From an uncultured Ignavibacteria bacterium (lineage in GTDB: Bacteria; Zixibacteria; MSB-5A5; CAIYYT01): a DNA stretch of 64,000 bases. A model generated the notes under the pieces. That model worked only from the letters and a program-made list of their open reading frames with translations, made no database searches and was not told the origin of the DNA. Positions 1,791-23,017 of the stretch are shown here, one piece after another. The position numbers and the translations under genes were made by a program. Numbering within the stretch: the first letter of the stretch is position 1; each line of letters opens with the position of its first letter. The DNA lies in assembly GCA_964592145.1 (NCBI GenBank), contig CAZQBX010000002.1:33634-97633 (forward strand), given 5' to 3'.

Positions 1791-1907
1791 CTTCTTGCTC
1801 CCGAAACTGCCGTGGCCGGCAGCTTGACATTTGGCGAAGATTATTTGTAGTACAATATAGAGCAACGATGTCGAAGCCGCCAGCGGTTTCGACCTACGAG
1901 CTGATTG

Positions 1908-3359
1908 CTATAGACACATGGCACACGGGTCTGGTCCGCCGAAGAAGATGTAGTTGATCAAATAGACGACATCGGAAATCGTGACCGAGCCGCTGCAATC
2001 AGCATCGGCGGATTCCAGTGGATTTGGCGCAGTTCCGCCGCTAAAAATGTAATTAATCAGAAAAACCACGTCGCTGATGTTCACCTGGGCATTTTTGTCG
2101 GCATCGCCACACAGAAAAGGCAGAACCGTGATTGTTCCGCTGACAAAAACCGGAAGAATGGCATTGTTGTCCAATCCAGTGAGCATTGATTCGGCATTGC
2201 CGGGAGGCTCATAATTGACCATGCGGAATTTCGTTGTCCCCGGAGCGAGAGGTTCGAATCGAATGGAAAATACATGCCCGGAGCCTGGACTTATTAATGT
2301 GTCAATCTCCCACCTCCAACTGCTCAAGCCGAATTGATTCGGATATGAGCCGTAACCTTCATAGTCGTTAAGCTCTGTTACATAAAGGGGATTGATTCTT
2401 GGCCCAGCCATATCATCGGCGAATCTCCAGGGTGTTCGAAGAATTGTAGTGTTCTCGACATTCCAGTTAAAGCTGAAGCTGCGAATCGCCTCGTCGTTGA
2501 AGAGGTTAAATTCGATGAACTCTGGAATGCCTACGTACATGGTATCGGACGCAAATGATACTGTGTCGCGCACGCCCGGATCAAAATAGTATGCCGGGTT
2601 ATAGGTACCACAGGAGCATGGGGGGTGACCATCATAGACTGAGTAGCTGATTAGGTAATTGATGTCCCTAAGGTCCAGATGACGATCGCAATTGATATCA
2701 AATGATTGGTAATATCCGGCGGAGACCCAAAAGTGTCCTACCAAGCACTTGTGGATGCGAAGCCAGTCGTTGGAATTTGCATGCCCGGAACCATCTGCGT
2801 CTCCAACAACATAATCGCAGGCGATTTGAATCTCACCTGATTGAAATTGCGGCACAAAGCTGGTTGCCGAAACATCAGTCAGAATCAGGCCCGAAGCACC
2901 CGAAGTATCCAATACAACGGTCCCGCCAAAGCGCACTCGAAACCACAACTTGCAGATCTGGCCGCTGCCAACGGCGAGGTTCAAACCGGAACTCACCCCG
3001 AATTGAATGCTTACCTTTTCGGTGACGAAGGAGTCAGTCTCGACGATGACAGCCTGCCGGAAGTCAAGAATTGCCGGATCGTCAAGACGACCGCCGGTAA
3101 AAGAAACCGAGTCAAAGGTCGCCCAACCAGAAGAGCAATCAATCAGCAGCGGAATCTCGATTGAAGTGAGTTCCTCATCGTTTGCCAGGAATACTGGAAT
3201 TGGTATCGACTGTGAAGGTACTCCAAAGTTGGCACAGGCGCATGAGTCGCTCCCAATTGAAAGCGTGTCCGCAACTCCGGGATCTTGCGCGAACAAACAG
3301 CGAATCGATACAATTGTAATGACGACGATCAGTACAGTGAGGTTTCTTAAGGATTCCAT
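1908..3359 (-). CDS. secreted dockerin-repeat protein, tandem paralog 2
   Basis: Same length as paralog 1 (483 aa) from the internal ATG at 3359 (MESLRNLTVLIVVITIVSIRCLFAQDP). The C-terminal roughly 140 aa and the signal peptide are nearly identical to paralog 1, while the middle has diverged. The ORF-track N-terminal extension to 3674 overlaps the pilT end and is unlikely to be real. Confidence 0.75.
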   Translation of the reverse strand: MESLRNLTVLIVVITIVSIRCLFAQDPGVADTLSIGSDSCACANFGVPSQSIPIPVFLANDEELTSIEIPLLIDCSSGWATFDSVSFTGGRLDDPAILDFRQAVIVETDSFVTEKVSIQFGVSSGLNLAVGSGQICKLWFRVRFGGTVVLDTSGASGLILTDVSATSFVPQFQSGEIQIACDYVVGDADGSGHANSNDWLRIHKCLVGHFWVSAGYYQSFDINCDRHLDLRDINYLISYSVYDGHPPCSCGTYNPAYYFDPGVRDTVSFASDTMYVGIPEFIEFNLFNDEAIRSFSFNWNVENTTILRTPWRFADDMAGPRINPLYVTELNDYEGYGSYPNQFGLSSWRWEIDTLISPGSGHVFSIRFEPLAPGTTKFRMVNYEPPGNAESMLTGLDNNAILPVFVSGTITVLPFLCGDADKNAQVNISDVVFLINYIFSGGTAPNPLESADADCSGSVTISDVVYLINYIFFGGPDPCAMCL

Positions 3360-3506
3360 CTTCTTGCTCCCGAAACTGCCGCGGCCGGCAGCTTGACATT
3401 TGGCGAAGATTATCTGTAGTACAATATAGAGTCTGATCGCCAGATTGGCAAGCCCAAAGGGCAGGAAGATGTCAAGCCCCAAGAGGGCTTGACCTACTAA
3501 ACTAAG

Positions 3507-3538
3507 TAAAAACGGTCCGAACCTTGCGGCTCGGACCG
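3507..3538 (-). terminator. rho-independent terminator downstream of pilT
   Basis: Stem cggtccga (3513-3520) pairs with tcggaccg (3531-3538). On the minus strand the stem is followed by TTTTTA (the plus-strand A-tract at 3507-3512). Confidence 0.55.
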
Positions 3539-3567
3539 TCGAAGTAACAAGCTGTTGGGGAAGGCTC

Positions 3568-4680
3568 TTAGTGTTGCCCTGCTGAAAACGCCGTCCAGGC
3601 GGTATCAGATGAACCGGTAATACCCTTGATGCGCAGATCGAAGTCGTCGGGGTTACTGGCGTTGCGCATGGCATCTTCGTAAGTGATGTGACCGGCGCGA
3701 TACAGTTTCATGATCGACTGGTCGAAGGACTGCATGCCGTACTGCACGTTGCCGCCTTCGATGAATTCGATGATCGATGAGGTCTTCATCGGATCAATGA
3801 TGGCGTCGCGAATGGCGCCGGTCGAAACGGCGACCTCGACTGCTGGAACTCGGCCCGGCATATCGGCGCGCGGCAAAAGACGCTGGCAGACGATCGCCTT
3901 GAGTGTGCCGGCAAGGAGCAGACGAATCTGCTGATGCTGGTGCGGCGGGAAGAACGAAATCACGCGCGTGATAGTTTCGACCACGTTCATCGTATGCAGG
4001 GTTGTCAGTACCAGATGCCCGGTGTCGGCGGCGGCGAGGGCGATGCCCATCGTTTCGGCATCGCGAATTTCGCCGATGAGAATGACATCGGGATCCTGAC
4101 GGAACGCGTGGCGCAAAGCGGCGGCGAAGTTTTCCGAATCGGCGCCGATCTCGCGCTGGCAAATGATTGATTTCTTGTCTTTGTAGATATATTCGATCGG
4201 GTCTTCGATGGTGACGATGTTCTCGGCGCGATTCGAATTGAGATGCTCGATGATCGCGGCGAGCGTGGTCGACTTACCGGAACCGGTGGTGCCGGTGACA
4301 ATCACGAGACCGCGGCGGGCATCGCACAGATCGGTGATGACCTCGGGCAGATTCAGATCTTCAAATGAAGGAACCAGCGTATTGACCGCACGAATGGCGA
4401 TACCGGGAGTGCCGCGCTGGCGATAAAGGTTGATACGGAAACGGCCGAGCTTGGTGACCGAAAGAGCCAAGTCCATTTCGTTGCGTGCGGCAAAGCGTTT
4501 CTGTTGCTCGGGGGAGAGAATCTGCGAGACGATCTCAGTCATCGCTTCTTTGGAAATCGGTTCGGTATTAATTGCAACCAGTTTGCCGTGCACGCGGAGT
4601 GTAGGTTTGATACCAACACGCAGGTGCAAGTCGGATGCAACGAGGTGCTGCATCTCTACCAGCATGTCACGCAGGTTCAT
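3568..4680 (-). CDS. pilT: type IV pilus twitching-motility ATPase PilT
   Basis: Walker A GTTGSGKSTT and the PilT/PilU-family motifs, with the overall PilT pattern (ED.NLP....L, His box TLHT). Confidence 0.93.
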   Translation of the reverse strand: MNLRDMLVEMQHLVASDLHLRVGIKPTLRVHGKLVAINTEPISKEAMTEIVSQILSPEQQKRFAARNEMDLALSVTKLGRFRINLYRQRGTPGIAIRAVNTLVPSFEDLNLPEVITDLCDARRGLVIVTGTTGSGKSTTLAAIIEHLNSNRAENIVTIEDPIEYIYKDKKSIICQREIGADSENFAAALRHAFRQDPDVILIGEIRDAETMGIALAAADTGHLVLTTLHTMNVVETITRVISFFPPHQHQQIRLLLAGTLKAIVCQRLLPRADMPGRVPAVEVAVSTGAIRDAIIDPMKTSSIIEFIEGGNVQYGMQSFDQSIMKLYRAGHITYEDAMRNASNPDDFDLRIKGITGSSDTAWTAFSAGQH

Positions 4681-8742: not shown

Positions 8743-10254
8743 TTATTTCACGCCGTAAAGCGGTTTGAACTTCTTCTCGAGATATCCCATCAACGGTTTG
8801 TGGTCGAGCTTCTTACCAGTAACCACTTTGACTAGTTCCTCAGCATGGTACCGCTGACCCTGGCTGTGGATGTTCTTGCGCAGCCAATCGAGCAGCGCCG
8901 AATACTTGCCGGCGGCAAACTGCTCATCGAGGTCGGGGATGTCCTTCTTAGCTTTGGCAAAGAACTGCGCAGCGTAGAGATTGCCTAATGCATAGGTCGG
9001 GAAATATCCGAACAGGCCGGCTGCCCAATGGATATCCTGCAAGCAACCCTGCGAATCCGATTTCGGGGTGATGCCGAAGTACTTGGTAAACTTCTCGTTC
9101 CAGACGGCCGGAAGATCCTTCGGCTTGATTGAGCCGTCAAATATCCCCTGTTCAATCTCAAAGCGGAGAAGTATATGAAGATTGTACGTCACTTCGTCGG
9201 CTTCAACACGGATGAACGATGCCTGGACGTCATTGATGGCGAAATAGAAATCTTCAAACTTCACATCGCCCAGCGCTTCATAGAAGGTCTGTTGAGCCAG
9301 GGGGAAAAAGAATTTCCAGAACGGTTTGGAACGTCCGACCATGTTTTCCCACATCCGCGACTGTGACTCGTGAATTCCGAGACTAACGGCCTCACCCATC
9401 GGCGTGCCGAAGTGTTCCCGCGGTAAGCCGAGTTCATAGAGAGCGTGGCCGGCTTCGTGCATCGTACCGAAAAGTGCCTGTCCGAGATGCTTGGGATTAT
9501 AGCGGGTGGTGATGCGGCAATCGCCGGGGCCGATCCCCGAGCAAAACGGATGCGCTGTGACATCCAAACGACCTTCGCTAAACGGGAAGCCGATCGCGGC
9601 GGCTACTGTTTCACCGAAGATGCGTTGACGATCAATCGAGAATTCGCGTTCGACAATCGAGACATCCGGCTTCTTCGGAGCATTGCGGATCTTTGCCACA
9701 AAATCGACAAGCTCTTTACGAAATTCAGAGAACACTGCCGTAATCGACTTGGCGGTGGCGCCGGGCTCATAGTCATCGATCAAGGCATCGTACGCCACGT
9801 CCTTGTATCCGATCGCCTCGGCATATTGCCGTTTGAGTTCGATCATCTTCTCCAAGTGCGGGAAGAATGATTTGAAATCGTTGTCTCGGCGTGCATTTAC
9901 CCAGACGCTTTGACCAGTCGTTTCGGCGTGGGCAATGGCTTGCACGAGCTTGTTCGGTACTTTGGTTCTTTTGTCATATGCCCGGCGCAGCTCGCGGACA
10001 TTCACAGCTTCCGGCGCCAGCGGATCCTTCGTTACTGGACTGGCTTCTGCGGCTTTCAGTAAGTCACCAACCTTGGGCGCGGTGAACTTTTCGTGCAGAA
10101 GTCCCGCCATATAGGCAAGCTGATTCGCACGGTGCGCGGAGCCGTTGCGAGGCATGTTGACCCGCTCGTCCCAGCCCAGAAGTGCCGCCGTCGAACCGAT
10201 CAATGAAACCTCGTTCATGATCTGTTTAAGTTCAGTCATGGCTTGTTTCGACAT
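8743..10254 (-). CDS. M32 carboxypeptidase (Taq-type)
   Basis: HEXXH zinc site in HEAGHALYE and overall M32 layout (about 500 aa). Confidence 0.88.
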   Translation of the reverse strand: MSKQAMTELKQIMNEVSLIGSTAALLGWDERVNMPRNGSAHRANQLAYMAGLLHEKFTAPKVGDLLKAAEASPVTKDPLAPEAVNVRELRRAYDKRTKVPNKLVQAIAHAETTGQSVWVNARRDNDFKSFFPHLEKMIELKRQYAEAIGYKDVAYDALIDDYEPGATAKSITAVFSEFRKELVDFVAKIRNAPKKPDVSIVEREFSIDRQRIFGETVAAAIGFPFSEGRLDVTAHPFCSGIGPGDCRITTRYNPKHLGQALFGTMHEAGHALYELGLPREHFGTPMGEAVSLGIHESQSRMWENMVGRSKPFWKFFFPLAQQTFYEALGDVKFEDFYFAINDVQASFIRVEADEVTYNLHILLRFEIEQGIFDGSIKPKDLPAVWNEKFTKYFGITPKSDSQGCLQDIHWAAGLFGYFPTYALGNLYAAQFFAKAKKDIPDLDEQFAAGKYSALLDWLRKNIHSQGQRYHAEELVKVVTGKKLDHKPLMGYLEKKFKPLYGVK

Positions 10255-10384
10255 TGATGTATCTCCTCGTAAAACGCGTTAGATCTTATTGAGAATGTCT
10301 ATAATATTATAACATCCTATCCCGTGCGAATCAAGCCTGTCAATGCCGGCTCTGGAACGGGAATCTGGGCAGTTCCGATACAGA

Positions 10385-10720
10385 TTATCGAACCCGGATT
10401 GCATCGGGAAAGTCGCGATAAAGCGCCGACTTGAAGTCGGTAATCGCGGTGAATACATGCCGATGCAGGCGCTCGACTTCGCCATCGCGTGTCGCAACAT
10501 GCTGGAAGGCCTGCTCCAACTGCGCCATATTCTCGGTCACAATCGTGATATTGAATTCTCCGAGTTCGGGTGGTCCCCATCCCAGTTTGCGCCGGGTGAT
10601 TGTATAGCCTTTGAGTCGACCCTGGTCCTGAAGATAGCCGAGGTAGTTTTTCACGTGTTCGCAGAATTCAAGGTCTTTGTGCGATTCCTTGAGGTTGCAC
10701 CAAATCTGATAGTAGTCCAT
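10385..10720 (-). CDS. small conserved hypothetical protein (111 aa)
   Basis: Globular-looking sequence (MDYYQIWCNLKESHKDLEFCEHVKNYLGYLQ...). The overlapping plus-strand ORF 10343-10744 is lower in complexity and looks non-coding. No motif recognised. Confidence 0.5.
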   Translation of the reverse strand: MDYYQIWCNLKESHKDLEFCEHVKNYLGYLQDQGRLKGYTITRRKLGWGPPELGEFNITIVTENMAQLEQAFQHVATRDGEVERLHRHVFTAITDFKSALYRDFPDAIRVR

Positions 10721-10744
10721 AGGTTCTCCTGTGTAATACAGTGA

Positions 10745-11362
10745 CTACGATATCAGATGCCAAAGTGTTACACCGGCCAGGGAATTTGTGTCGACATTCG
10801 CAAAGTAATGACTAATGAGAATCTTGATACCGATCGCGATCAGAATTACCCCACCGACTAATTCCGCCTTTCGGCCAAGGTAGCCTCCCAGTCGTTTTCC
10901 GCAAATCATTCCAACAATCGTGAATGCCAATGCGACCAAGCCGATTACGATGATTGGCGCAATTATGTCGACTTTGAGAAACGCGATACTCAATCCGACG
11001 GCGAAGGCATCGATGCTTGTGGCAATGGAGAGCAGCATCAAGGACCATTTGCGGGTCGGGTCTTTCAACGCTACGTTCAGTTCTTCTTTATGCGAGAATG
11101 ATTCCTGAACCATTTTGACACCGATGACAAGCAGTAATCCGAAGGCAATCCAATGGTCGATGTTCACGATCAGGTACTCGACCTTGGTGCCGAGGTACCA
11201 GCCAATAAGCGGCATCAGCGCCTGAAAGAGACCGAAGTGAAATGACAGGCGGAAGTAATGGCGAAATGTCAGATTTGGTATACGGCAGCCAACTGCGATG
11301 GCGACGGCGAAGGCGTCCATCGCCAACGCTACGGCAATACCTATAACGGTGAGCAGATTCAA
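10745..11362 (-). CDS. mntP: manganese efflux pump MntP (DUF204 family)
   Basis: Duplicated LAMDAFAV.IA.G / SIDAFAVG.S half-motifs and about 6 TM segments. The likely start is the TTG at 11362 (LNLLTVIGIAVALAMDAFAV); the ORF-track start at 11455 adds a 31-aa non-MntP extension. Confidence 0.8.
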   Translation of the reverse strand: MNLLTVIGIAVALAMDAFAVAIAVGCRIPNLTFRHYFRLSFHFGLFQALMPLIGWYLGTKVEYLIVNIDHWIAFGLLLVIGVKMVQESFSHKEELNVALKDPTRKWSLMLLSIATSIDAFAVGLSIAFLKVDIIAPIIVIGLVALAFTIVGMICGKRLGGYLGRKAELVGGVILIAIGIKILISHYFANVDTNSLAGVTLWHLIS

Positions 11363-11598
11363 ATCGTGGTGTCCGTGGCGTCGCGGTTGATCATTGTCAT
11401 ACCCAGCGATTATAGCACAGCAACCGCGAAAATAATACCGGAATTCTATGTTCAACTCATCATGGTAAGAAGGTTGATTTTCCCTTTGAAAAATGCCTGA
11501 TTTTGTTATCTTCGCGGTTCAGCGGCTGCGTGAAATGCGCTGGATAGGACACGTTTTGTCCGCTGGAAACTAGTAGTCACTGATTGATAGGTTAGAGG

Positions 11599-13425
11599 AT
11601 GAAACCGTTTTCACAATTACGACGCACCCATACCTGCGGTGAACTCCGCAAAGGACACGCCGGCTCAAGCATCACACTCAATGGCTGGGTAAAAAAGTAC
11701 CGCAACCACGGCGGCATCTTGTTCGTCGATCTGCGCGACCGCTATGGCGTCACGCAAGTGGTGTTTCATCCCGACAACTTCTCCGCAGAGAAGATGGAAA
11801 TTGCTTCGCACCTCCGCGGGGAGTTTGTAATCAGTGTCACTGGAAATGTCGTTAAACGCCCGGAAGGCATGATCAATCCAAATCTCGCGACCGGCGACAT
11901 CGAGGTCGACGCCAAAGATTTCGAACTTTTGGCCGAGTCGGAGACTCCGCCGTTTGAGATCGAAGAGGACACCACTGCCAACGAAGACCTGAGACTGACC
12001 TATCGTTATCTTGATCTCCGGCGCCGCTTTCTCGCCGACAAGATCGAGATGCGCCACCGGTTTGCATTTGCAGTGCGGCAGTATTTGCATGAGCAGAAAT
12101 TCCTTGAGATTGAGACCCCGCTGTTGATGCGCTCGACACCGGAAGGAGCACGCGATTATGTTGTGCCTTCGCGCGTACATCCCGGCAAGTTCTATGCCCT
12201 GCCACAGTCGCCGCAATTGTTCAAGCAAATTCTGATGATATCCGGCTTTGACCGCTATTTTCAACTTGCGCGGTGCCTGCGCGATGAAGATTTGCGTGCC
12301 GACCGCCAGCCGGAGCATACACAGATCGATTTGGAGATGTCCTTCGTCACACAAGACGATATCTTCGCAATGGTCGAAGGGATGATGAAATACTCTTTCA
12401 AAGAGACCCTTGGTGTTGATATCGAAACACCATTTCCACGCTATCCCTATGATCAGATCATGAGCGAGTACGGTTCCGACAAACCGGATCGGCGATTTGA
12501 AATGAAGCTGATCGATTTCTCGGACGTATTTGTTGGATCGGAATTCAAGGTATTTGCCGAGGCTTTGGCCTCGGGAGGAGTGGTCAAAGGAGTGATCGCT
12601 CCGGGACAAGCCGGGCTATCTCGCAAACAACTTGAGGAGATCGAAGACGAGGCGAAGCTCGCCGGCGCGAAAGGTCTCGCCTGGATAGCGTTTGCAGAAG
12701 AAGTCAAGTCGCCGATCAAGAAGTTCCTGACTGATGAAGTCGTGAAGAAACTTCGCGAAATCGGACACATCAAGGATGGTGACCTGCTGATGTTAGGCGC
12801 CGGCAAAAAATTACCCACCGAGGGAATACTCGGGCGGGTTCGCAGTTACTGCGGTAAGAAATTCGGAATGATAGATAAGTCGAAGTACTCATTCCTCTGG
12901 GTAACGGAGTTTCCGTTGTTTGAGTATCATTCTGATCTTGGCAGGTTTGATGCCATGCATAACATTGTCACTTCGCCGCGCGAAGCGGATATGGGTCTTC
13001 TGGAAGAAGGATTCACAACTTCAACGCCATTGAGCGATCCTAATCATCCGTGGGCAAAAGTGCGAGCGAATCAGTATGATTTGGTCTGTAACGGGTTTGA
13101 GTTGGCGTCAGGCGGTATTCGCAACCACCGCTCCGATATGCAGAAGAAGATACTCAATATCCTCGGAATGGATGATGCTCGAGCTGACCGGATGTTCGGA
13201 TTCCTTCTGACGGCGCTCAAGTATGGCGCCCCGCCGCACGGAGGGATGGGACTGGGCCTTGATCGAATTGTCGGAATTATGACTGATTCCGATTCGTTGC
13301 GGGATGTCATCGCTTTCCCGAAAACGACAGCGGCGCAGTCACTTATGGATGGTTCGCCAACGGAGATCGAACCTGAGCAGCTGGCGGAACTGTCACTGGC
13401 AATTAGTATTGACAAGAAGAAGTAA
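11599..13425 (+). CDS. aspS: aspartate--tRNA ligase
   Basis: Class II aaRS motifs (FRDEDLRADRQPEHTQIDLEMSF, GGIRNHR) and N-terminal OB fold (GWVKKYRNHGGILFVDLRDRYG). Confidence 0.95.
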   Translation: MKPFSQLRRTHTCGELRKGHAGSSITLNGWVKKYRNHGGILFVDLRDRYGVTQVVFHPDNFSAEKMEIASHLRGEFVISVTGNVVKRPEGMINPNLATGDIEVDAKDFELLAESETPPFEIEEDTTANEDLRLTYRYLDLRRRFLADKIEMRHRFAFAVRQYLHEQKFLEIETPLLMRSTPEGARDYVVPSRVHPGKFYALPQSPQLFKQILMISGFDRYFQLARCLRDEDLRADRQPEHTQIDLEMSFVTQDDIFAMVEGMMKYSFKETLGVDIETPFPRYPYDQIMSEYGSDKPDRRFEMKLIDFSDVFVGSEFKVFAEALASGGVVKGVIAPGQAGLSRKQLEEIEDEAKLAGAKGLAWIAFAEEVKSPIKKFLTDEVVKKLREIGHIKDGDLLMLGAGKKLPTEGILGRVRSYCGKKFGMIDKSKYSFLWVTEFPLFEYHSDLGRFDAMHNIVTSPREADMGLLEEGFTTSTPLSDPNHPWAKVRANQYDLVCNGFELASGGIRNHRSDMQKKILNILGMDDARADRMFGFLLTALKYGAPPHGGMGLGLDRIVGIMTDSDSLRDVIAFPKTTAAQSLMDGSPTEIEPEQLAELSLAISIDKKK

Positions 13426-13554
13426 TCACGTACATTTTAGCGCCCTCAATTGACAAATTCGGATTGAGGAACGTATTCACGTTGGTCACGTTCGGATCGA
13501 ACGTGACAACGTATTTATGGCATAATTCTCGGATGTCGAGGTACTAAGAACCGT

Positions 13555-14514
13555 TTGAGTGAACCACTTGAAAAGAAGATCGAGCTGAAGAGTGTCGATC
13601 CCCGCACCCTGTTTACAGGCAATAATAATCTGCTCAAAACCATTGAAGCCAGCTTTGATGTTCAAATCGTTGCCCGTGGAGATGCAATTTCAATTACCGG
13701 GCCAGAAGCCGCGCAAGCCGAAACCCTGTTTTTTGATTTGTTCGAACGGCTTCAGCGTCAGGGCGAAATTTCGGAACAATATCTGCATTACGCAATTTCC
13801 CAAATCAAAGAATCGGGTCAAGGTCCGGCGACCGAGTTAGATATTTCTACCGCTCTTTCGAGCATTGTCAAAGCGGATATCCGGCCGAAGACAATCGGTC
13901 AGCGGGAATATATCGAGGCGATTGAGAAGCATGACATTGTATTCGGGATCGGTCCAGCCGGCACTGGAAAGACCTATCTCGCTGTGGCTGAAGCGGTTGC
14001 TGGACTCAAAGGTAAACTGTACAATCGAATTATTCTCGTCCGCCCTGCAGTTGAAGCTGGCGAGTCACTGGGATTCTTGCCCGGTGATATCCGCGCCAAA
14101 GTTGATCCGTATCTTCGACCGGTTTATGATGCTTTACATGACATGCTTCCTGCCGATAAGATAAAGAAGCTGATGGAATTAGGTGTAATTGAGATTGTAC
14201 CCTTAGCGTTCATGCGCGGACGTACCCTCAATACAGCGTTTGTCATCTTGGATGAGTCGCAAAACACCACCATTGCCCAGATGAAGATGTTCCTGACGCG
14301 CATTGGTGAAGGATCCAAGGCAGTCATTACCGGCGACGTCACGCAAATCGACCTCGACAGAAAGCGACTTTCAGGATTGGTTGCCATTCAGAAAATCCTC
14401 AAGGACATTCCCGAGATCAAGTTCTCCTACTTGACCGACAAGGACGTAGTGCGTCACCGCCTGGTGAAGCAGATCATTCGCGCTTTCGATCGCTACGAGA
14501 CCGGACAGAAATAG
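13555..14514 (+). CDS. phoH: PhoH-family ATPase (YbeZ-like)
   Basis: Walker A GPAGTGKTYLAVA, TTG start, first gene of the conserved phoH-HD-ybeY-corC operon. Confidence 0.9.
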   Translation: MSEPLEKKIELKSVDPRTLFTGNNNLLKTIEASFDVQIVARGDAISITGPEAAQAETLFFDLFERLQRQGEISEQYLHYAISQIKESGQGPATELDISTALSSIVKADIRPKTIGQREYIEAIEKHDIVFGIGPAGTGKTYLAVAEAVAGLKGKLYNRIILVRPAVEAGESLGFLPGDIRAKVDPYLRPVYDALHDMLPADKIKKLMELGVIEIVPLAFMRGRTLNTAFVILDESQNTTIAQMKMFLTRIGEGSKAVITGDVTQIDLDRKRLSGLVAIQKILKDIPEIKFSYLTDKDVVRHRLVKQIIRAFDRYETGQK

Positions 14515-14517
14515 TCT

Positions 14518-16740
14518 ATGTTTAATCTCCTCCGCATAGGGATGCGGAAGGTGCGCCGGCGTATCCGCAAGGAACGAGCGACGCACGGGCAGTCAGGCGC
14601 CAGTCGTTTCTGGTTGGTGCTGATTATCGCTTTCGCCATTGTATTCACATCATTCCTGTTTCCAATGGCTCATGTATTCTCCCCGCCGTCGACGCCGCAG
14701 GTAGGCGATATCGCGACCGAGGACATTCTTGCCCCATTTGAATTTCCGGTTTACAAGAGCGAAGCTGAACTGGAGTTTGAACGGCGTGAAGTGATTGGCT
14801 CATTGCCGGCTGTGATGATTTATGATGAGGCAAAGGTTGATTCAGCTTTTCGTGCCTTAGACCGGTTGTTCTTTCTCGCAGACAGCGTCAAGCAACGAAT
14901 CAAGAATATTGAAAGAGGCGCCGACCGGCTCCGGTTGTTTTATCCACGACTCAAGGAAAGCATCCTGCGCCGGATGGTTGCTGCCGACAGCCTGCAGCAA
15001 AAGAAACGGATTATCCGCAACGCTCTTGAAGATCGCTATCTCGTTGGTGTGGCGGTGGCCGACACAGCTGTACCCTCGAACTACCAGACGGCCCAGATCA
15101 ATCGGAATACGCGGAACTCTTTGTATGCCGCCGACCAAATTCGCGGTTTGGCGGAGAATCGCCGGGAACTTGAGGCCGATCTTAGCCTTCATGCGGAAGA
15201 GGCTCACATTCGCGCAACCTGGCTCTACGACATTGCGGTCGAATTCCTCGTACCGAATCTGACCTATTCGCCTGAAGAAACGACGCGGAAGCGCGAAGAA
15301 GCTCTGGCCGCAATTTCGCAGGAACGAATCTGGTTCAAGGCGGGGCAGCGCATCATAGCCAAGAATGAGCCGGTGACCAAGACACATCTCGATTGGCTCA
15401 ATGCGTTGGCGGAACATCGTTCGGTTACGGGAGCAAAAGCCGGATTACTTCAATACTTGCTGCCGATCATTGCCCGCTTCCTTTTTGTGTCGTTTGTGTT
15501 CTTGAGCTTTCTGTTCGCCTATTATGCGATGCGAGGCAAAGATGACTTTGTCCTGATCAGAGTCTTTCCGCTGCTGCTGGTGATATTAGTGACAGTGGTA
15601 GCCGGCTATTTGATCACTGAGCAGACCGGTCTCACCGAGTACCTCATTCCGGTTTCTGCCGGCATCATTCTCGTAGCAATTCTGTACGATTTTTCGACCG
15701 CCGTGTTGGTCACACTAACCGAGGCCGTTTTGTTCGGAATACTATACCAATTCAATTTTGAGATAAGTTTCATCATAGTCGTGTCTGGGCTGGTTTCGGC
15801 CTTTACAATGCAGAAGGTGAAGAAGCGGTCAGACTTCTATCGCGGAGCCCTTTACATTTCCATAGCGTTGGCGGCTACGGCTTACCTGCTGGAGTCGTTG
15901 AAATTTGCTGCCGGTGAGTTTGTACTTCAACAATGCGGTTATTCGCTGATCAATGCCGCCGCCTCGTCGTTTATTGCGATGGCGGTGTTGCCGCTGTTTG
16001 AATCGTTCTTTTCGTTTACGACAAACATCACCTTGCTGGAACTGTCTGATATGAATCACCCGCTCCTGAAGAGATTGGCGCTGGAATCGCCCGGTACCTA
16101 CCACCACTCGCTGGTGATTGGCAGTTTATGCGAAGCGGCGGCGGAGGCGATCGGAGCCAATTCGCTGTTGGCTCGAATCGGGGCGTATTATCACGACGTC
16201 GGCAAAATGGAAATTCCCGAGTACTTCGTTGAGAATCAGATGGGGTTGCGCAGTAAACACGAAGAGCTGTCACCGACGATGTCGGCGATTGTAATTAAGT
16301 CACATATTACGCGTGGACGCGAACTGGCCGAAGAAAACGACTTGCCTGACCGAATCATTGCCTTTATCGAGGAGCATCACGGGACGTCGCTGATGTCGTT
16401 CTTCTACAATAAAGCCAAGGAACTGCGACCGGATGAAGAGGTCTCCGATGCGGAATTCCGGTACCCGGGTCCGAAACCGCAATCGCGGGAAACTGCAATC
16501 TTGATGCTCGCTGACGTCGTGGAAGCGGCTTCTCGAACTCTGGATGACCCAAAACCGGCGCGAATCCGCAACTTGATCCGGCGCCTGATAACCGACAAAT
16601 TTCAATCGGGTCAGTTATCCGAATCGACACTGACTCTGAATGATTTGCAGGGAATCGAAGATGCCTTTGCGAAAGTCTTGATGGGCGCTTTCCACACCAG
16701 GGTCGATTATCCCACCCGTGAAGAAGAAAAGCCTGCTTGA
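14518..16740 (+). CDS. pgpH: 7TM receptor with intracellular HD hydrolase (PgpH/YqfF family)
   Basis: N-terminal extracellular region, 7 TM helices, C-terminal HD domain (HSLVIGSLCEAAAE...YYHDVGK...EHHG). Confidence 0.88.
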   Translation: MFNLLRIGMRKVRRRIRKERATHGQSGASRFWLVLIIAFAIVFTSFLFPMAHVFSPPSTPQVGDIATEDILAPFEFPVYKSEAELEFERREVIGSLPAVMIYDEAKVDSAFRALDRLFFLADSVKQRIKNIERGADRLRLFYPRLKESILRRMVAADSLQQKKRIIRNALEDRYLVGVAVADTAVPSNYQTAQINRNTRNSLYAADQIRGLAENRRELEADLSLHAEEAHIRATWLYDIAVEFLVPNLTYSPEETTRKREEALAAISQERIWFKAGQRIIAKNEPVTKTHLDWLNALAEHRSVTGAKAGLLQYLLPIIARFLFVSFVFLSFLFAYYAMRGKDDFVLIRVFPLLLVILVTVVAGYLITEQTGLTEYLIPVSAGIILVAILYDFSTAVLVTLTEAVLFGILYQFNFEISFIIVVSGLVSAFTMQKVKKRSDFYRGALYISIALAATAYLLESLKFAAGEFVLQQCGYSLINAAASSFIAMAVLPLFESFFSFTTNITLLELSDMNHPLLKRLALESPGTYHHSLVIGSLCEAAAEAIGANSLLARIGAYYHDVGKMEIPEYFVENQMGLRSKHEELSPTMSAIVIKSHITRGRELAEENDLPDRIIAFIEEHHGTSLMSFFYNKAKELRPDEEVSDAEFRYPGPKPQSRETAILMLADVVEAASRTLDDPKPARIRNLIRRLITDKFQSGQLSESTLTLNDLQGIEDAFAKVLMGAFHTRVDYPTREEEKPA

Positions 16741-17171
16741 TGCCGCTGATTACGATACATAACAGCGTCCCGAATACTCGCGTGGCCCGCAAGAGTTTGA
16801 CGCAGTTGGCGCAGATCGTGCTCAAGGGCGAACGCTGCCGCAAAAATGTGAACTTGATTTTTGTCGATGACAGTCGTATGTATGAACTCAACCGCGAGTT
16901 TCGCGGAAAGGAGAAAACAACCGACGTATTGTCATTTGCTATGGAAGACGACGACGATCCCCTATTAGGAGAGATATACATCTCGATTCCTGAAGCTCGC
17001 CGCAACGCCCGCGAGTACGGAATCACTCTCACACGTGAAATTCACAAGCTCTTCTGCCATGGATTATTGCATCTGCAGGGAATTCATCATCCCACGCCGC
17101 AGAAGCGGGCGATCATGGCCGCCAAGGAAGACAAGTATCTGGCGTTACTTGATACCGGAGGTCGGCGATGA
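16737..17171 (+). CDS. ybeY: rRNA maturation endoribonuclease YbeY
   Basis: HGLLHLQGIHH metal-binding motif; ATGA overlap with pgpH. Confidence 0.92.
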   Translation: MMPLITIHNSVPNTRVARKSLTQLAQIVLKGERCRKNVNLIFVDDSRMYELNREFRGKEKTTDVLSFAMEDDDDPLLGEIYISIPEARRNAREYGITLTREIHKLFCHGLLHLQGIHHPTPQKRAIMAAKEDKYLALLDTGGRR

Positions 17172-18445
17172 TTTATATTGCCGCCTTCTTCGCCATCTTG
17201 ATTCTGTACTACTTGTCTTATGTGTTTGCTGTCGCAGCCGGCGGGCTGTACTTATCCGACAACGACGAAAAACGGTTCCTCGAGTCACTTCCTGAAAAGA
17301 AAAAGCGAACGGTACAGGGTTTAATTGAAAACCTGAAACGCCTGGCGGTCACCGCCACGCTGATTCAGTCGGGTTCGTTGATTGTTTCGACAATCTTGTG
17401 GTTCTTGATTGGTTCAAGCTTCGAAGTGCCGAATCTTCAGAAGTATGCCATTGAAGTTGCGTTGATAATCATCGGCTGGTTTGTATACACAACGTTGGTA
17501 GCGGTAATCGCGCCGAACCTTAAGCAGGAACGTGAGCTTGATATCATTGCGTCGAAGGCCTGGCTGCTGCAGGGATTTGTGGCATTGGCTTCGCCGGCGG
17601 TGTCTTCCATCATCAAGTTCAAGAGCAGCCTGATTGACAAGCAGGATCTTGATGAACGTAAAGAAGAGATCGTCGAACGGGCGATTGAAGAACTGGCGGA
17701 TTCAGCGGGTATCGATGAGCCGATGATGGAGTCGAATGTTCGTGATATGATTGTCAATGTGTTCGATTTAGCCGACTCGGAAGTTCGCGAAGTCATGATC
17801 CCCCGAATTGAAATCAAGTTTCTTGAAGCCGGCGCCAGTTTCGCCGAAGTTCGCGAAATCGTAGCAGAAACCGGCTATTCACGCTTACCGGTGTGTAAGA
17901 ACGGAATCGATAACATTGTAGGAATTCTGCACGTGAAAGACTTGTTCAAACAGTCTCCGCTGCCCTCGGCAGACTGCGATGTCACCGGTATTGCACGGCC
18001 GGCACTGTTTGTTCCGGAAAGTAAGCAGTTATCGAAGTTGCTTGAAGAGTTCAAGGTCCAGAAGATCCATATGGCGATTGTGGTCGATGAGTATGGCGGC
18101 ACCGCCGGACTTGTGACTCTTGAGGACCTGCTGGAATTGATTGTCGGCGACATACAAGACGAGCACGACGCGGAGGAAGCCGACATTGTCAAGGTTTCAG
18201 ATACCGAGTATGTGGTATCTGCGAATCTTTCGATGTATGACTTGTCCGATCAACTAGACCTAAAATTGCAGGAAAGAGAATTCGAGACAGTTGGCGGCTA
18301 CATCTACGATCTTGTAGGTTCGCTGCCTGATATCGGCCAAAGAGTCGCCGCCGACGGCATCGAATTCGTCGTCGAGCGTGTCAATGGCCAACGCATCGAA
18401 AAAGTCCGTGTCATCCTACCCAAGCCGGAAGAACAGCAAGTCTGA
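17168..18445 (+). CDS. CorC/TlyC-family protein (DUF21 + tandem CBS + CorC_HlyC)
   Basis: N-terminal 4-TM DUF21, tandem CBS pair, C-terminal transporter-associated domain; ATGA overlap with ybeY. Confidence 0.88.
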   Translation: MIYIAAFFAILILYYLSYVFAVAAGGLYLSDNDEKRFLESLPEKKKRTVQGLIENLKRLAVTATLIQSGSLIVSTILWFLIGSSFEVPNLQKYAIEVALIIIGWFVYTTLVAVIAPNLKQERELDIIASKAWLLQGFVALASPAVSSIIKFKSSLIDKQDLDERKEEIVERAIEELADSAGIDEPMMESNVRDMIVNVFDLADSEVREVMIPRIEIKFLEAGASFAEVREIVAETGYSRLPVCKNGIDNIVGILHVKDLFKQSPLPSADCDVTGIARPALFVPESKQLSKLLEEFKVQKIHMAIVVDEYGGTAGLVTLEDLLELIVGDIQDEHDAEEADIVKVSDTEYVVSANLSMYDLSDQLDLKLQEREFETVGGYIYDLVGSLPDIGQRVAADGIEFVVERVNGQRIEKVRVILPKPEEQQV

Positions 18446-18621: not shown

Positions 18622-18828
18622 TTACGACCGGCCGGAGGTGCTATGCCGACGTATCATTTCCTGATAGGCTGGAAGATCCCACAGCGGCTTGAATTCCTCG
18701 TTCAACTTGAAGTCATTTGTCGTGAGACCTGATTCAATTGACAGGAGATAGTCGAGTCGTTCGATTGCCTCTTCGTACCGTCCACACATCACGTAAATGT
18801 TGGCCATGACCATGACCATTGAAGGTCC
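18622..18828 (-). pseudogene. in-frame continuation of the kinase-TPR gene beyond the TGA (possible nonsense-interrupted C-terminus)
   Basis: Same frame as the kinase. The 65 codons after the TGA read as TPR-like sequence with a family-typical tail: ANIYVMCGRYEEAIERLDYLLS...FKPLWDLPAYQEMIRRH. Confidence 0.5.
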
Positions 18829-21279
18829 TCACCAGTGGCATTTATCCACCGAGAGAAGGTCCATTGCTCGATGTCCCATTTCGACAGCACGGTCGCATTC
18901 CCCTAATACTGCGAGTACCCCTCCGAGAGGAGAAACAAGATGGGGGTCATCGGGCTGGTCATCAATGGCAATTTCAAGAAGTTGTCTCGCCGAATCGGCA
19001 TGTGCGAGAGACAACGTCGAATCACCGCGTAATCGGTACACAAAGCTCGCGTTCAGATGAAAATCCTGGGGCTTTGCTGTGTTTCGAAGTTCGCGTAAAT
19101 GGCGAACAAAGAGTGAATCAAGGGGTAGATCAGGGAGACGTCGAAAGAACAGCCAAGTATTCTCCGAAAACAGGCTCAATGTATCCACATGTTTAAGGGT
19201 CTGCCGCGCAAATTGCTCCATCTTGTCCAGGTCGCCATAGCGGGTCCCGTAGTAATAGATTTTTGCGGAATAATGGCCAGACCGGGATGGTTCAAGTGCA
19301 ATCGCGCGATTAATTGATGCTTCCATCTCGTCATAAGAGCGGGTCAAACCGAGGCAACTGGCCAATTCGCTATGCCGGCGCGCCTCAAGTGGATCAAGCT
19401 CGGCGGCACGTCGATAGTTGCTTTGAGATTCCGAGAACCTTCCTTGGCGCATTTGAACGAACGCGATGCCGGCTAAGAGCTCGGGATCATTGGGGAGTTC
19501 CGATTTGGCGATCTCAAATTCTGCCATCGCCTTATCGTAGTCAGTTTCAATTACGTTGTAGTAGGTCCCGAGTGCGCGGTGACCTTGAGGGAGCTTTGCA
19601 TTTAGCTGCAACGCTTTTTCGGCTGCCTGACGCGCCAACGCTTTCTTCTCCGGCGAGCTCAATTCATAGCCAAGCCAGCTATAGGCAATTGATCTTTCCG
19701 CGTGAGCAAGAGCAAACTCGGGGTCCAGCATCACAGCGCTGTCAAAGTAAGCTGCGTAGGTTAACCTTGCTTTAAAACCCTGGTCAGTTTGTCGGTAGCC
19801 GCTGATTCCTTTCAGATAGAATTCATATGCCTGCTCATTGCTCGTCGGTTTATCAGCGAGTTTTTCACGCTCTGGTTCAAGAAGCGTTAATCCAAGTTGG
19901 TCGACTATCTGTGAGGCGATTTCTGCCTGCACTGCGAAAACTTCCATCACCGCTCGCTCGTAGTTGTCAGCCCACATGTGACGATCGTCTGACACTCGAA
20001 TAAGTTGTGGCGTTATCCTGACCTTCGTCTGCCCCGCTGACTTTGCCCAGCGTACTGTTCCCTCAAGGACGTAATTGACTCCAAGCTCGCTGCCAATTTC
20101 ACTCAAGCTTTTCCCAGATTTCTTGTATTGCATGGCACTCGTGCGTGATATGACACCGAGACCCTTGATACCGGCAAGGCGGGAGGTGATTTCTTCAGTC
20201 ATGCCGTCGGCGAAATATTCGTCATCAGGATTTCCCAGATTTTCGAAAGGCAGGACCGCAATCATCGGCATGGCATTGGCAGTCTCGGATTGAGTCGATT
20301 CAGACCACGGGAGAAAGTAGATGACAAGAACTGCCGCAATGACGACTATCGCCGCCCCGACATACACTTTCAAGTGTGATTTGACCGGTTTGGACCGGGG
20401 CTGATTTCCGGTTTGCTGCGAGTCATAGACGAGCCGTTTGAGGTCGGCAATGATATCCTCTGCTGTCTGGTACCTCATCCCCCGGTCTTTCTCCAGCAGC
20501 TTGTCGATGATTTGCTGAAGCCTCTGCGGGATGCCCGATTTATAACGACTTAACGGCTCCGGCACATCCTGCATTATTGCCCGCAACGTTGCGCCTTCGC
20601 TGTCGCGCCGGAAGGGCGTGCGTCCAGCGAGCAGTTCATACAGAACGACTCCAAAGGAAAAGAGATCTGATCGTTGGTCGATGTCGCGTCCGGACACCTG
20701 TTCCGGCGACATATATGATACCGTCCCGAGAGTAGAGCCGGTTTTCGTTAGCTTGTCGTCTCCCGCAACAGCCGCGAGACCAAAATCGAGAAGTCGTGCC
20801 CGCCCCTTGGTATCAACAATGATGTTGGTGGCTTTGATATCCCGGTGAACCACGCCGGCGCGGTGTGCTTCGCCGATTCCCTGGCAGACTTGGACGGCGT
20901 AATCCACAACTGTGTCGATCGGCAACGGTCTTTCGTTGGCGAAGTGTTGAAGTAAGTGCCCCTCGACATGTTCCATCGCAAAGAATGGCCGGCCGTTGAA
21001 CTCGCTGACATCATAGATCGTGACAATGTTCGGGTGATTCAGTTTCGCGACCGCTTGTGCTTCGCGCAGAAACCTGGTCTTGATTTCTTCGTTTGATGCA
21101 AGATGCGAAGGCAGGAATTTCAAGGCGACTTTCCGCTTGAGTCTGGTGTCCTCCGCCAGAAAGACTTCACCCATTCCTCCGGCACCGATCTTTTCGATGA
21201 TCCGGTAGTGTGAGATCATCGTGCCGCCTGTTAGCGTCACGTGAGTTCTTGTCTTATCGTCTGAATCGTCTTTTGACAC
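18829..21279 (-). CDS. Ser/Thr protein kinase with TM segment and C-terminal TPR region, ending at an in-frame TGA
   Basis: Kinase subdomains GAGGMGEVF...ALK, HRDIKATNI, DFGLA, SPE; one TM helix (VGAAIVVIAAVLVIYF); TPR-like C-terminal region. Confidence 0.85.
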   Translation of the reverse strand: MSKDDSDDKTRTHVTLTGGTMISHYRIIEKIGAGGMGEVFLAEDTRLKRKVALKFLPSHLASNEEIKTRFLREAQAVAKLNHPNIVTIYDVSEFNGRPFFAMEHVEGHLLQHFANERPLPIDTVVDYAVQVCQGIGEAHRAGVVHRDIKATNIIVDTKGRARLLDFGLAAVAGDDKLTKTGSTLGTVSYMSPEQVSGRDIDQRSDLFSFGVVLYELLAGRTPFRRDSEGATLRAIMQDVPEPLSRYKSGIPQRLQQIIDKLLEKDRGMRYQTAEDIIADLKRLVYDSQQTGNQPRSKPVKSHLKVYVGAAIVVIAAVLVIYFLPWSESTQSETANAMPMIAVLPFENLGNPDDEYFADGMTEEITSRLAGIKGLGVISRTSAMQYKKSGKSLSEIGSELGVNYVLEGTVRWAKSAGQTKVRITPQLIRVSDDRHMWADNYERAVMEVFAVQAEIASQIVDQLGLTLLEPEREKLADKPTSNEQAYEFYLKGISGYRQTDQGFKARLTYAAYFDSAVMLDPEFALAHAERSIAYSWLGYELSSPEKKALARQAAEKALQLNAKLPQGHRALGTYYNVIETDYDKAMAEFEIAKSELPNDPELLAGIAFVQMRQGRFSESQSNYRRAAELDPLEARRHSELASCLGLTRSYDEMEASINRAIALEPSRSGHYSAKIYYYGTRYGDLDKMEQFARQTLKHVDTLSLFSENTWLFFRRLPDLPLDSLFVRHLRELRNTAKPQDFHLNASFVYRLRGDSTLSLAHADSARQLLEIAIDDQPDDPHLVSPLGGVLAVLGECDRAVEMGHRAMDLLSVDKCHW

Positions 21280-21550: not shown

Positions 21551-23017
21551 TTAGTCTTCGCCCTGGGCCTTTGTAAACCCATCTTTGCCATCGAAGATCT
21601 GCAGTTTCTCGATATGGCCCCAGCGGAACTTGCCGCTCATCTTTTGCATGATAGCGGCGAGAATCTCGTCGGTCATATCCTTGTCTGCGTCGCGCATCAG
21701 TATGCGACACGTAAAAGCATCAACGGTGTCAGTGATCGTGCCCATCGATGGGTACAACTTGGTACCGCGGCTGGAGACCATTTTGAGTTTGAGCGGAGTG
21801 CCCTCAAGAACGGCTTCCATACCTTTGCCAAGTTCGTCCACCGTCGAGGCCCACTCCACAAAGAGATCGAGCCCGACGACCTTGCGGGTCTTGGCGGCGA
21901 CAAAGTCCGGCCGGGCGGAGATATCCGGCATCTTGATCGGCTTGTGGTCGCGGACATGCACCTTCGAAGGCTTCTTGCCGTAGTTGGCAATAATGGCATC
22001 GGTATAGCCGGTAGTTGAGGCGGCTTTCTCATCGCCGACCACGTCACGCGGCATAACTTTGCCTTCTTCAAGAGTGAACAATACGGCGTTCTCGATTGTG
22101 GCCGCTTCCTTGAACATCCCTAAGTAGCGAAGCATCATTACCGCCGAGAATACGACCGCGGTCGGATTGATGACGTTTTTGCCGGCATACTTGGGGGCTG
22201 AACCGTGGACGGCTTCGAAGATGGCAATATCCGTGCCCAGGTTGGCTGAAGGCGCAAATCCCAGACCGCCTATCAGAGCCGAACTCAAGTCGCTGATGAT
22301 ATCGCCATTCATATTGGTCGTGATGATAACATCGAACTGCTCCGGCTTCTTGACGAGCTGGTGAGCGCAGTTGTCAATGATGATGTGGTATGATTCGATG
22401 TCCGGATATTCCGGGGCAATTGCTTCGAAGGCGCGCTTGAGGGTGCCTTCGGTGAATTTCATGATATTGGCTTTTGTTGCGCAATGGACAGTCTTGCGTC
22501 CTTCGGCGCGGGCGACTTCGAATCCAAGTCGTACGATCTTCTCGCAACCTTTACGCGAAATCAGTTTGAGACACTGGGCAACACCCGGCGTCTGCATATG
22601 TTCAATGCCGGCATAGAGATCCTCGACGTTTTCGCGAACGACGATCAGGTCGACCCCGCGTCCGGTGTACGGCGTCTTGACGCCGGGAATTTCGCGGGCC
22701 GGACGAATGTTACCGTAGGTTTCAAATAGCTTGCGCAACGTGACATTCGCGCTCTTCTCGCCATAACCTACCGGAGTACCAAGGGGCCCTTTCAGTACCA
22801 GACGAGTCTTCTTGATTGACTCGATCGTTTCGGGAGTTACGCCGGAAGGGATTCCCTGCTTGAAAACACTTTCGCCGGCTGCACGCTCTTCCCAGGCAAG
22901 CGGCGCGCCGGTGGCTTCGATCATCTTTTTTGCCGAGTTGACACACTCGGGGCCGATGCCGTCGCCGGGTATTAGAGTAACGAGGACTTTACCATCAGGT
23001 GTTTTGAACGGTGACAT
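21551..23017 (-). CDS. icd: isocitrate dehydrogenase (isocitrate/isopropylmalate dehydrogenase family) with roughly 140-aa C-terminal extension
   Basis: Family motifs (NLFGDI-like NMNGDIISDLSSALIGGLGFAPSANLG, GSAPKYAGK). The first roughly 345 aa form the core and are followed by an extra C-terminal domain. Confidence 0.85.
   Translation of the reverse strand: MSPFKTPDGKVLVTLIPGDGIGPECVNSAKKMIEATGAPLAWEERAAGESVFKQGIPSGVTPETIESIKKTRLVLKGPLGTPVGYGEKSANVTLRKLFETYGNIRPAREIPGVKTPYTGRGVDLIVVRENVEDLYAGIEHMQTPGVAQCLKLISRKGCEKIVRLGFEVARAEGRKTVHCATKANIMKFTEGTLKRAFEAIAPEYPDIESYHIIIDNCAHQLVKKPEQFDVIITTNMNGDIISDLSSALIGGLGFAPSANLGTDIAIFEAVHGSAPKYAGKNVINPTAVVFSAVMMLRYLGMFKEAATIENAVLFTLEEGKVMPRDVVGDEKAASTTGYTDAIIANYGKKPSKVHVRDHKPIKMPDISARPDFVAAKTRKVVGLDLFVEWASTVDELGKGMEAVLEGTPLKLKMVSSRGTKLYPSMGTITDTVDAFTCRILMRDADKDMTDEILAAIMQKMSGKFRWGHIEKLQIFDGKDGFTKAQGED

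Follow-up and report, generated by a model that had tools for sequence, protein, structure and literature searches.

Known bacterial selenoproteins are overwhelmingly oxidoreductases. A standard signature for recognising selenoproteins is a TGA codon that aligns with cysteine (Cys) in homologs and lies in a CxxC-type motif, and Cys homologs are described in the literature as numerous for almost all selenoprotein families. The published model of the bacterial selenocysteine insertion sequence (bSECIS) gives a loop of 3-9 nt with G in its two initial positions, a stem of 4-16 bp, a UGA-to-loop distance of 16-37 nt and a minimum free energy (MFE) of -7.5 kcal/mol or lower, while a second published description gives a 6-8 bp stem and a conserved loop G ~20 nt downstream. 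Among bacterial signalling proteins, a putative histidine kinase containing selenocysteine (Sec) has been predicted in marine Deltaproteobacteria, where it stands as an unverified candidate (PMC8318568). Here, we describe a gene for a Hanks-type Ser/Thr receptor kinase on the reverse strand of a 64,000-nt stretch of DNA from an uncultured Ignavibacteria bacterium assigned by GTDB to the Zixibacteria (GenBank assembly GCA_964592145.1, contig CAZQBX010000002.1, positions 33,634 to 97,633; this whole stretch is referred to as the window). An in-frame TGA in this gene is very probably read as Sec by SECIS-directed insertion, giving a single receptor kinase of 885 residues, and from the comparative analysis we infer that the inserted residue is indeed Sec. 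The resemblance to the Deltaproteobacteria candidate, which is likened here by description only, lies in Sec being predicted in a bacterial signalling kinase from an in-frame UGA and a SECIS; the two differ in kinase superfamily and in organism group. The parts of the gene around the codon are as follows, in window positions.

18622-21279, minus strand: complete predicted selenoprotein gene of 885 codons, with a GTG start at 21277-21279, the Sec-TGA as codon 817 and a TAA stop at 18622-18624.
18829-18831, minus strand: in-frame TGA, the predicted Sec codon, always TGA in relatives whose terminal stops vary.
18829-18840, minus strand: CxxU motif TGC CAC TGG TGA, predicted to encode Cys814-His-Trp-Sec817; Cxx-TGA in 30 of 30 loci.
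18818-18828, minus strand: 11-nt spacer from the UGA to the hairpin, GGACCUUCAAU, coding Gly-Pro-Ser and the first two bases of a Met codon.
18802-18817, minus strand: predicted bacterial SECIS core, with 5' stem GGUCAU at 18812-18817, loop GGUC at 18808-18811 and 3' stem AUGGCC at 18802-18807.
18625-18828, minus strand: C-terminal tail after Sec, residues 818-885, comprising the last tetratricopeptide repeat (TPR) unit and an end-of-group capping module, conserved in frame.

The kinase open reading frame (ORF; 18829-21279, minus strand) encodes 816 aa from a GTG start and closes with the codons TGC CAC TGG TGA (C-H-W-stop), its C-terminus being ...SVDKCHW-TGA with the TGA at 18829-18831. The initial annotation, made from the window alone, had noted that this TGA interrupts a kinase-TPR gene, which was confirmed: reading on in the same frame gives GPSMVMVMANIYVMCGRYEEAIERLDYLLS...PAYQEMIRRHSTSGRS, a further 68 codons (18625-18828, minus strand) before TAA at 18622-18624. 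Since TGA terminates 22 of the 52 long ORFs in the window, it is an ordinary stop here and the genome is not globally recoded, in agreement with the initial annotation; a global reassignment of TGA was rejected on the same count. The protein database was searched with the sensor region joined across the stop, and all homolog counts given here refer to the best 120 matches. These shared 46-97% identity with the query and were mostly labelled Zixibacteria or FCB group. Nearly all of them covered exactly 87% of the query, i.e., they end at the TGA column, and the minority covering 97-99% were full-length homologs of 850-890 aa that either carry Cys or lack the motif. In 105 of the 120, the C-terminus was Cxx-stop (mostly CHW, but also CHY, CHF, CFW, CFM, CDP and CTP), and the joined Sec form was found in none of these listed homologs.

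At the DNA level, metagenomes were scanned with a pattern (KELLS[IV]xxCHW followed by TRR) that allowed TGA, TAA, TAG or TGG at the codon in question. All 18 true family matches carried TGA, and the lone TAA match was an unrelated chance match. Ten more divergent genes that were fetched singly, including two tandem paralogs in locus L103, also had TGA, as did locus L001, so that the codon is TGA in 30 of 30 related loci (the window counted) drawn from NCBI, ENA, JGI and Logan assemblies, down to ~46% protein identity. The comparison of orthologs for TGG or TGA at this position, which had been suggested at the outset, thus returned TGA throughout and TGG in none. The true terminal stops of the same genes differ (13 TGA, 9 TAG and 7 TAA). 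Past the in-frame TGA, frame 0 alone stays open, for 64-70 codons, in 29 of 29 loci. The Gly codons directly after the TGA differ at the third position only (GGA in 19, GGG in 5, GGC in 1), as do the Pro codons that follow (CCG in 15, CCT in 5, CCA in 4, CCC in 3), and the first in-frame ATG lies 5 codons past the TGA in 23 of 29 loci; as these Gly-Pro codons precede the first ATG and vary only at third positions, they are translated. The 68 downstream codons are under purifying selection, and the recurrence of the same TGA, frame and downstream sequence in all 30 loci is far beyond chance. The view that the stop falls inside conserved coding sequence, followed in frame by the C-terminal tail of the family, is borne out by this in-frame conservation in all loci. 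Orthologs that end at the TGA and continue into unrelated sequence had been named as contrary evidence; the annotated ends do coincide there, but the downstream sequence is conserved in frame.

In the closest homologs that read through this position (P0021, P0055, P0056, P0059, P0068 and P0078), a CxxC motif stands at the TGA column, within ...ECISCVPS... or ...ECVSCLPS... where the window has ...DKCHW-TGA-GPS..., and the Cys codon in loci L109-L111 is TGT. The TGA of the kinase family is therefore aligned with Cys in its homologs, as is expected of a bacterial selenoprotein gene. Distant relatives from Gemmatimonadota, Verrucomicrobiota and Acidobacteriota (30-40% identity) read through with an ordinary residue that varies, located in a ...SKDAxxGP... 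loop, and lack Cys. A contig scan with the family alignment gave, among the matches listed, mostly distant relatives without Cys or Sec, and these served as negative controls. The 120 closest proteins comprised 105 predicted Sec forms, 6 Cys forms and 9 proteins without the motif, the last including two outgroups and one fragment.

Downstream of the TGA, a (GGTCAT)2 repeat at 18806-18817 (minus strand) starts 12 nt after the codon and lies inside the predicted SECIS hairpin, in which U18818-A18801 forms a seventh pair of the stem. The sequence GGUCAU-GGUC-AUGGCC, with few substitutions, is present in 29 of 29 Sec loci, and the spacer that precedes it measures 11 nt in 26 loci, lengthening to 17 nt in the three CDP, CTP and CSP variants, which have a two-codon insertion. 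RNAalifold gave the hairpin as the sole consensus structure; its pairing holds in 144 of 144 cells, and all slid registers fail. Compensatory changes were found at two pairs (G-C to A-U, in L082 and L103a), and three one-sided changes also preserve pairing. Codon choice within the hairpin is skewed, with Val encoded by GTC in 55 of 55 hairpin positions compared to 34% elsewhere in these genes, and Ala by GCC in 29 of 30 compared to a background of 39%. Judged from these comparisons, the hairpin sequence is constrained beyond the needs of the encoded V-M-V-M-A.

The hairpin resembles the bSECIS of the E. coli fdhF type as a stem-loop within the coding sequence 3' of the UGA, with an upper stem of 6-7 bp and a small loop starting with G-G. 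The minimal SECIS of E. coli fdhF is a 17-nt upper stem-loop located 11 nt from the UGA and bearing a GGUC loop, which would equal the spacing and loop of the kinase hairpin. In the window, the values fall within the published bSECIS model (loop GGUC, stem 7 bp, UGA-to-loop distance 17 nt, -7.6 kcal/mol), and the second published description also fits; the loop and the UGA-to-loop distance (17 nt, or 23 nt in the three variants, both within the 16-37 nt range) are common to all 29 loci. What sets the kinase hairpin apart is that it is specific to the family, that it also encodes V-M-V-M-A and that its lower stem varies by clade, with 0 to 6 extra pairs that are sometimes bulged; its binding by SelB is predicted only, and an Rfam search of the hairpin region at gathering thresholds and at permissive E-values returned no match.

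The hairpin also follows the presence of the predicted Sec codon. A qualifying hairpin (-5 kcal/mol or better) was detected at the corresponding position in 27 of 29 Sec loci compared to 6 of 51 non-Sec relatives (Fisher p = 2e-13), and a hairpin with a GGUC loop in 0 of the 51. It was wholly lost in two of the three Cys-form genes, and the third (L111) retains a stem with a GCUC loop. Covariation, synonymous suppression and loss where Sec has been replaced are thus all seen for the hairpin and indicate selection at the RNA level. The L111 gene (324-2939; the same protein as P0021) is a Cys form with TGT that keeps the stem GGUCAU/AUGGCC around a loop of GCUC instead of GGUC, which suggests that Sec was recently converted to Cys and that the SECIS is now decaying. 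Locus L103 (GCA_008633255.1) carries two tandem kinase paralogs (10001-12649 and 12664-15288) that are both predicted Sec forms of different subtypes: one, CHW-U, combines an 11-nt spacer with the compensatory stem GAUCAU/AUGAUC, and the other, CSP-U, a 17-nt spacer with the stem GGCCAU/AUGGCC.

In an approximate neighbour-joining tree of the ectodomains, which carries no support values, the Cys and motif-less forms fell in one derived clade, interspersed with Sec forms, and P0083 (CDP-U) was sister to P0021 (CISC). From this distribution, Sec appears to be ancestral and dominant in the subfamily, with Sec-to-Cys conversions and losses of the motif having taken place later.

Several observations weigh against decoding of the TGA as Sec. 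In a minority of loci, the hairpin reached -4.5 to -7.3 kcal/mol in a restricted-window calculation, which is weaker than the -7.5 kcal/mol of the published model. Folded alone, the window sequence was not significant (z = 0.33) and its MFE structure differed from the conserved hairpin, so that the hairpin is resolved by comparative analysis only. Covariation is limited, as the stem is nearly invariant and three of its six pairs never vary. ARAGORN and tblastn with E. coli SelA, SelB and SelD detected no selA, selB, selD or tRNA-Sec across the 64-kb window and the fetched loci (~0.9 Mb), an absence that is expected for 64 kb and, with a small fraction of the genome covered, counts as weak evidence. 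Finally, a scan of the window for other ORFs split by TGA (70 junctions) returned, besides the kinase gene, none that was convincing and could independently corroborate Sec use by the organism.

Of the three explanations put forward in the initial annotation, programmed read-through of the TGA came nearest, although Sec insertion was not named as its specific mechanism. Read-through could also be independent of Sec, with the UGA decoded by a near-cognate or suppressor tRNA (Trp, Cys, Arg or Gly), maybe stimulated by the hairpin, to produce short and long isoforms. Such stimulated read-through would likewise predict conservation of the TGA, of the downstream coding sequence and of a 3' hairpin, and it would sit well with Sec machinery not being observed in the window or fetched loci. 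We nevertheless consider it improbable, given that the sense codon of read-through homologs is specifically one for Cys and that their upstream Cys is retained, which is the signature of Sec/Cys exchange rather than that of neutral read-through, and that the hairpin corresponds to a SelB-type SECIS in its loop (G-G-U-C), stem length and distance and decays where TGA becomes TGT. Less probable still is an arrangement of two polypeptides, in which the kinase ends at the TGA and the tail of 59-65 aa is a translationally coupled small gene starting from the ATG 5 codons downstream. Gene callers do report the tail as its own ORF in every locus, a representative protein library holds ~19 clusters of orphan tails, and in the window a Shine-Dalgarno-like GAGGA string overlaps the TGA, 6 nt before the ATG. 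Yet this string is absent in the CDP, CTP and CSP variants, the tail is in frame 0 with the kinase in 29 of 29 loci with a stop that is always TGA, and selection at the protein level acts on the Gly-Pro codons that separate the TGA from the ATG. The tail is moreover fused in Cys-form, motif-less and distant homologs, and in the structural model described below it completes the last TPR unit, which begins at the CxxC.

The two remaining explanations of the initial annotation, a recent nonsense mutation (leaving a pseudogene) and a sequencing or assembly error at this codon, have nothing in their favor beyond a stop inside a conserved frame. Both are refuted by the same TGA in 30 independent assemblies from four sources at ~46-97% identity, by the 105 of 120 closest database proteins that end at the same column and by purifying selection on the 68 codons downstream, and together they retain hardly any credibility. 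Equally negligible is the suggestion that the (GGTCAT)2 hexamer is a site of slippage or phase variation that changes in copy number. It is a perfect two-unit tandem repeat, but its copy number is identical in 29 loci without length polymorphism, substitutions preserve base pairing and not the repeat, and the gain or loss of one unit would leave the frame intact. Two hexamer units are too few for efficient slippage, and the repeat corresponds to the stem and GGUC loop of the SECIS-type hairpin.

Upstream of the predicted Sec codon, the kinase is composed of three regions.

20458-21207, minus strand: Hanks-type Ser/Thr protein kinase domain, residues 25-274, predicted to be cytoplasmic (Pfam Pkinase PF00069).
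20305-20367, minus strand: single transmembrane helix, residues 305-325, the sole strongly hydrophobic 19-mer (Kyte-Doolittle mean 2.8).
18832-20304, minus strand: predicted extracytoplasmic sensor region up to the Sec codon, residues 326-816, with a putative TolB-like/CadC-like alpha/beta subdomain followed by TPR-like repeats.

The kinase domain matched PF00069 with E=4.3e-52 (177.6 bits compared to a cut-off of 31.7), and the catalytic motifs expected of a Hanks-type kinase are all intact (GAGGMG at 32, VALK at 51, HRD at 145, DFG at 165 and SPE at 191). The transmembrane helix is preceded on its N-terminal side by R/K/K/H/K, consistent with the positive-inside rule; the kinase is accordingly placed in the cytoplasm and residues 326-885 outside, as predicted from hydropathy and the positive-inside rule only. 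Assignment of the sensor region was based on Pfam TPR matches and on database names such as 'TolB-like protein'. The 68-aa tail alone gave weak Pfam TPR matches, and residues 806-856 of the joined protein matched the NCBIfam 'TPR end-of-group domain' NF047558 (TPR_END_plus) with 28.7 bits, compared to a cut-off of 32. Splitting at the TGA may be the reason such tails go unnamed. In their overall layout, an N-terminal cytoplasmic kinase, a single transmembrane helix and an extracytoplasmic sensor, the window kinase and the Hanks-type receptor kinases (PknB/Stk1 with PASTA domains, and PknD) are alike. They differ in that the window protein lies below every NCBIfam equivalog cut-off (for PknB_PASTA, 318.8 compared to 450), has a TolB-like/TPR sensor in place of PASTA domains or a beta-propeller, and carries a predicted Sec.

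To place the motif in a structural context, an AlphaFold2 model was made for the ectodomain of the natural Cys form P0059, using a 40-sequence alignment, and not for the window protein. The model is confident (pLDDT 84.5, pTM 0.81; pLDDT 86-96 around the motif) and has an alpha/beta subdomain, after which comes an extended array of TPR-like helices. C492 forms the N-cap and C495, the Sec position, lies in the first turn of a helix spanning residues 493-509. On this model, the CxxC occupies the N-terminus of a helix, a placement that is usual for redox-active CxxC/CxxU motifs, and the last TPR unit, with a first helix that starts at the CxxC, is completed by the tail. The fold around the motif is all-helical TPR and hence not a thioredoxin fold, outside of which the motif may nonetheless work like a redox CxxU. 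The best structural match to the whole architecture was the periplasmic domain of CadC (3ly7), with a TM-score of 0.67 (normalised to CadC), a root-mean-square deviation of 4.9 A and ~14% identity, and a weak NCBIfam CadC match extended over residues 273-546; the remaining structural matches were generic TPR superhelices. As in the E. coli CadC sensor, the predicted layout has an N-terminal alpha/beta and a helical subdomain joined through one transmembrane helix to an output domain in the cytoplasm. In CadC itself, a periplasmic disulfide modulates activity. In the kinase family, a Hanks kinase takes the place of the ToxR-like DNA-binding output domain, several TPR units lengthen the helical part, and the Cys/Sec pair lies in the C-terminal TPR region instead of the alpha/beta subdomain.

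Taken together, these features allow a mechanism to be proposed. The in-frame hairpin would recruit SelB carrying Sec-tRNA(Sec) when the ribosome arrives at the UGA, in keeping with the predicted binding, and the product would be a cytoplasmic Hanks-type kinase linked by one transmembrane helix to a periplasmic CadC-like/TPR sensor with Cys814-x-x-Sec817 in the last TPR unit. The Cys/Sec pair could form a reversible selenenylsulfide or bind a soft metal or metalloid. In this way, redox or chalcogen chemistry in the periplasm might alter the sensor domain and thereby modulate the kinase; the sensing function is entirely our inference. When selenium is scarce, translation would stop at the UGA and yield a sensor that lacks the last TPR unit and cap. 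We tentatively put the kinase forward as the founding example of a Sec receptor kinase, a proposal we hold to be plausible but short of probable, in which a periplasmic Cys-x-x-Sec switch would sense redox conditions, reactive sulfur or selenium species or soft metals and signal through a Hanks-type kinase, with Sec ancestral and dominant throughout a large radiation of Zixibacteria-like lineages (105 Sec and 6 Cys forms) and the selenium supply setting the balance between full-length and cap-less sensor.

The 119 families and subfamilies of prokaryotic selenoproteins compiled in 2026 (Zhang et al. 2026) include no protein kinase, TPR or TolB-like/CadC-like entry, and Zixibacteria are not mentioned there. 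Earlier selenoprotein surveys and the 2025 deep-Sep paper list no such kinase, and literature searches for Zixibacteria together with selenocysteine, or for a Sec-containing Hanks kinase, found nothing relevant. In NCBIfam, no model reaches its cut-off for the kinase protein and none of the matches is a selenoprotein model. The kinase shares a Cys-x-x-Sec motif and Cys-containing homologs with the catalogued prokaryotic selenoproteins and, like the TonB-dependent receptor selenoprotein family, is an envelope protein without a thioredoxin fold. It differs from the catalogued families in that the motif belongs to a sensor domain within a signalling protein instead of an oxidoreductase, and in that Sec forms outnumber Cys forms (105 to 6 among the best 120 matches); both the signalling-sensor setting and the excess of Sec over Cys forms are unusual. 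On the sequence comparisons made here, this is apparently a new selenoprotein family that uses known, canonical bSECIS recoding and that is widespread and consistently mis-annotated.

The mis-annotation takes a regular form, with public entries given as a truncated 'protein kinase'. In loci L100-L108, each Sec-form gene is annotated as a 'protein kinase' of ~815 aa followed by an orphan hypothetical ORF of 59-65 aa, and gene callers likewise report the tail in the window as an orphan ORF of 65 aa. When the tail was searched among 1.84 billion representative proteins, most matches placed it at the extreme C-terminus of long (TPR) proteins, and ~19 clusters (50% identity) were orphan ORFs of 61-71 aa starting from the first Met after the TGA. 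As judged from their sequences, these orphan-tail ORFs are annotation debris of Sec-form genes. The string GGUGAGGA (18821-18832, minus strand) overlaps the UGA, is Shine-Dalgarno-like and lies 6 nt before the next AUG; gene callers probably start an ORF after the UGA because GGUGAGGA resembles a Shine-Dalgarno site. The hairpin GGUCAUGGUCAUGGCC, located 11 nt after Cxx-TGA, would offer a simple signature by which such kinase genes could be re-annotated and genomes that use Sec could be flagged in poorly studied phyla. If the Sec reading is correct, Sec in the extracytoplasmic sensor of a signalling kinase would bring signal perception into the scope of selenium biology, and the family would provide a natural test of why a sensing thiol switch should favor Sec over Cys.

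In the window, the neighbours of the kinase gene are housekeeping genes, with isocitrate dehydrogenase at 21551-23017 and a CorC/CBS protein at 17168-18445. The closest public genome found (L100; GCA_016708315.1, contig JADJGC010000023.1) has a kinase ortholog that is 93% identical over the sensor region, and synteny with the window around this gene takes in isocitrate dehydrogenase, the kinase, CorC, YbeY, HD/7TMR-HDED and PhoH. Elsewhere, members of the kinase family often adjoin other TPR kinases and signalling genes (L107, 214-7406; L108, 438-6052; upstream genes of L109 and L110). Partner-switching and signalling neighbours of the family include STAS, an anti-sigma-like HATPase_c protein, a SpoIIE phosphatase that carries FHA and GAF domains, and a sigma-54 activator, which together give hints of a downstream pathway.

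Apart from the kinase locus, the window contains a tandem duplication with a period of 1569 nt (units 332-1900 and 1901-3470) and copies that are 77-98% identical. It consists of two paralogous genes (339-1865 and 1908-3674, both on the minus strand) encoding proteins of 508 and 588 aa; a dockerin type I domain at the C-terminus is the sole Pfam match of each.

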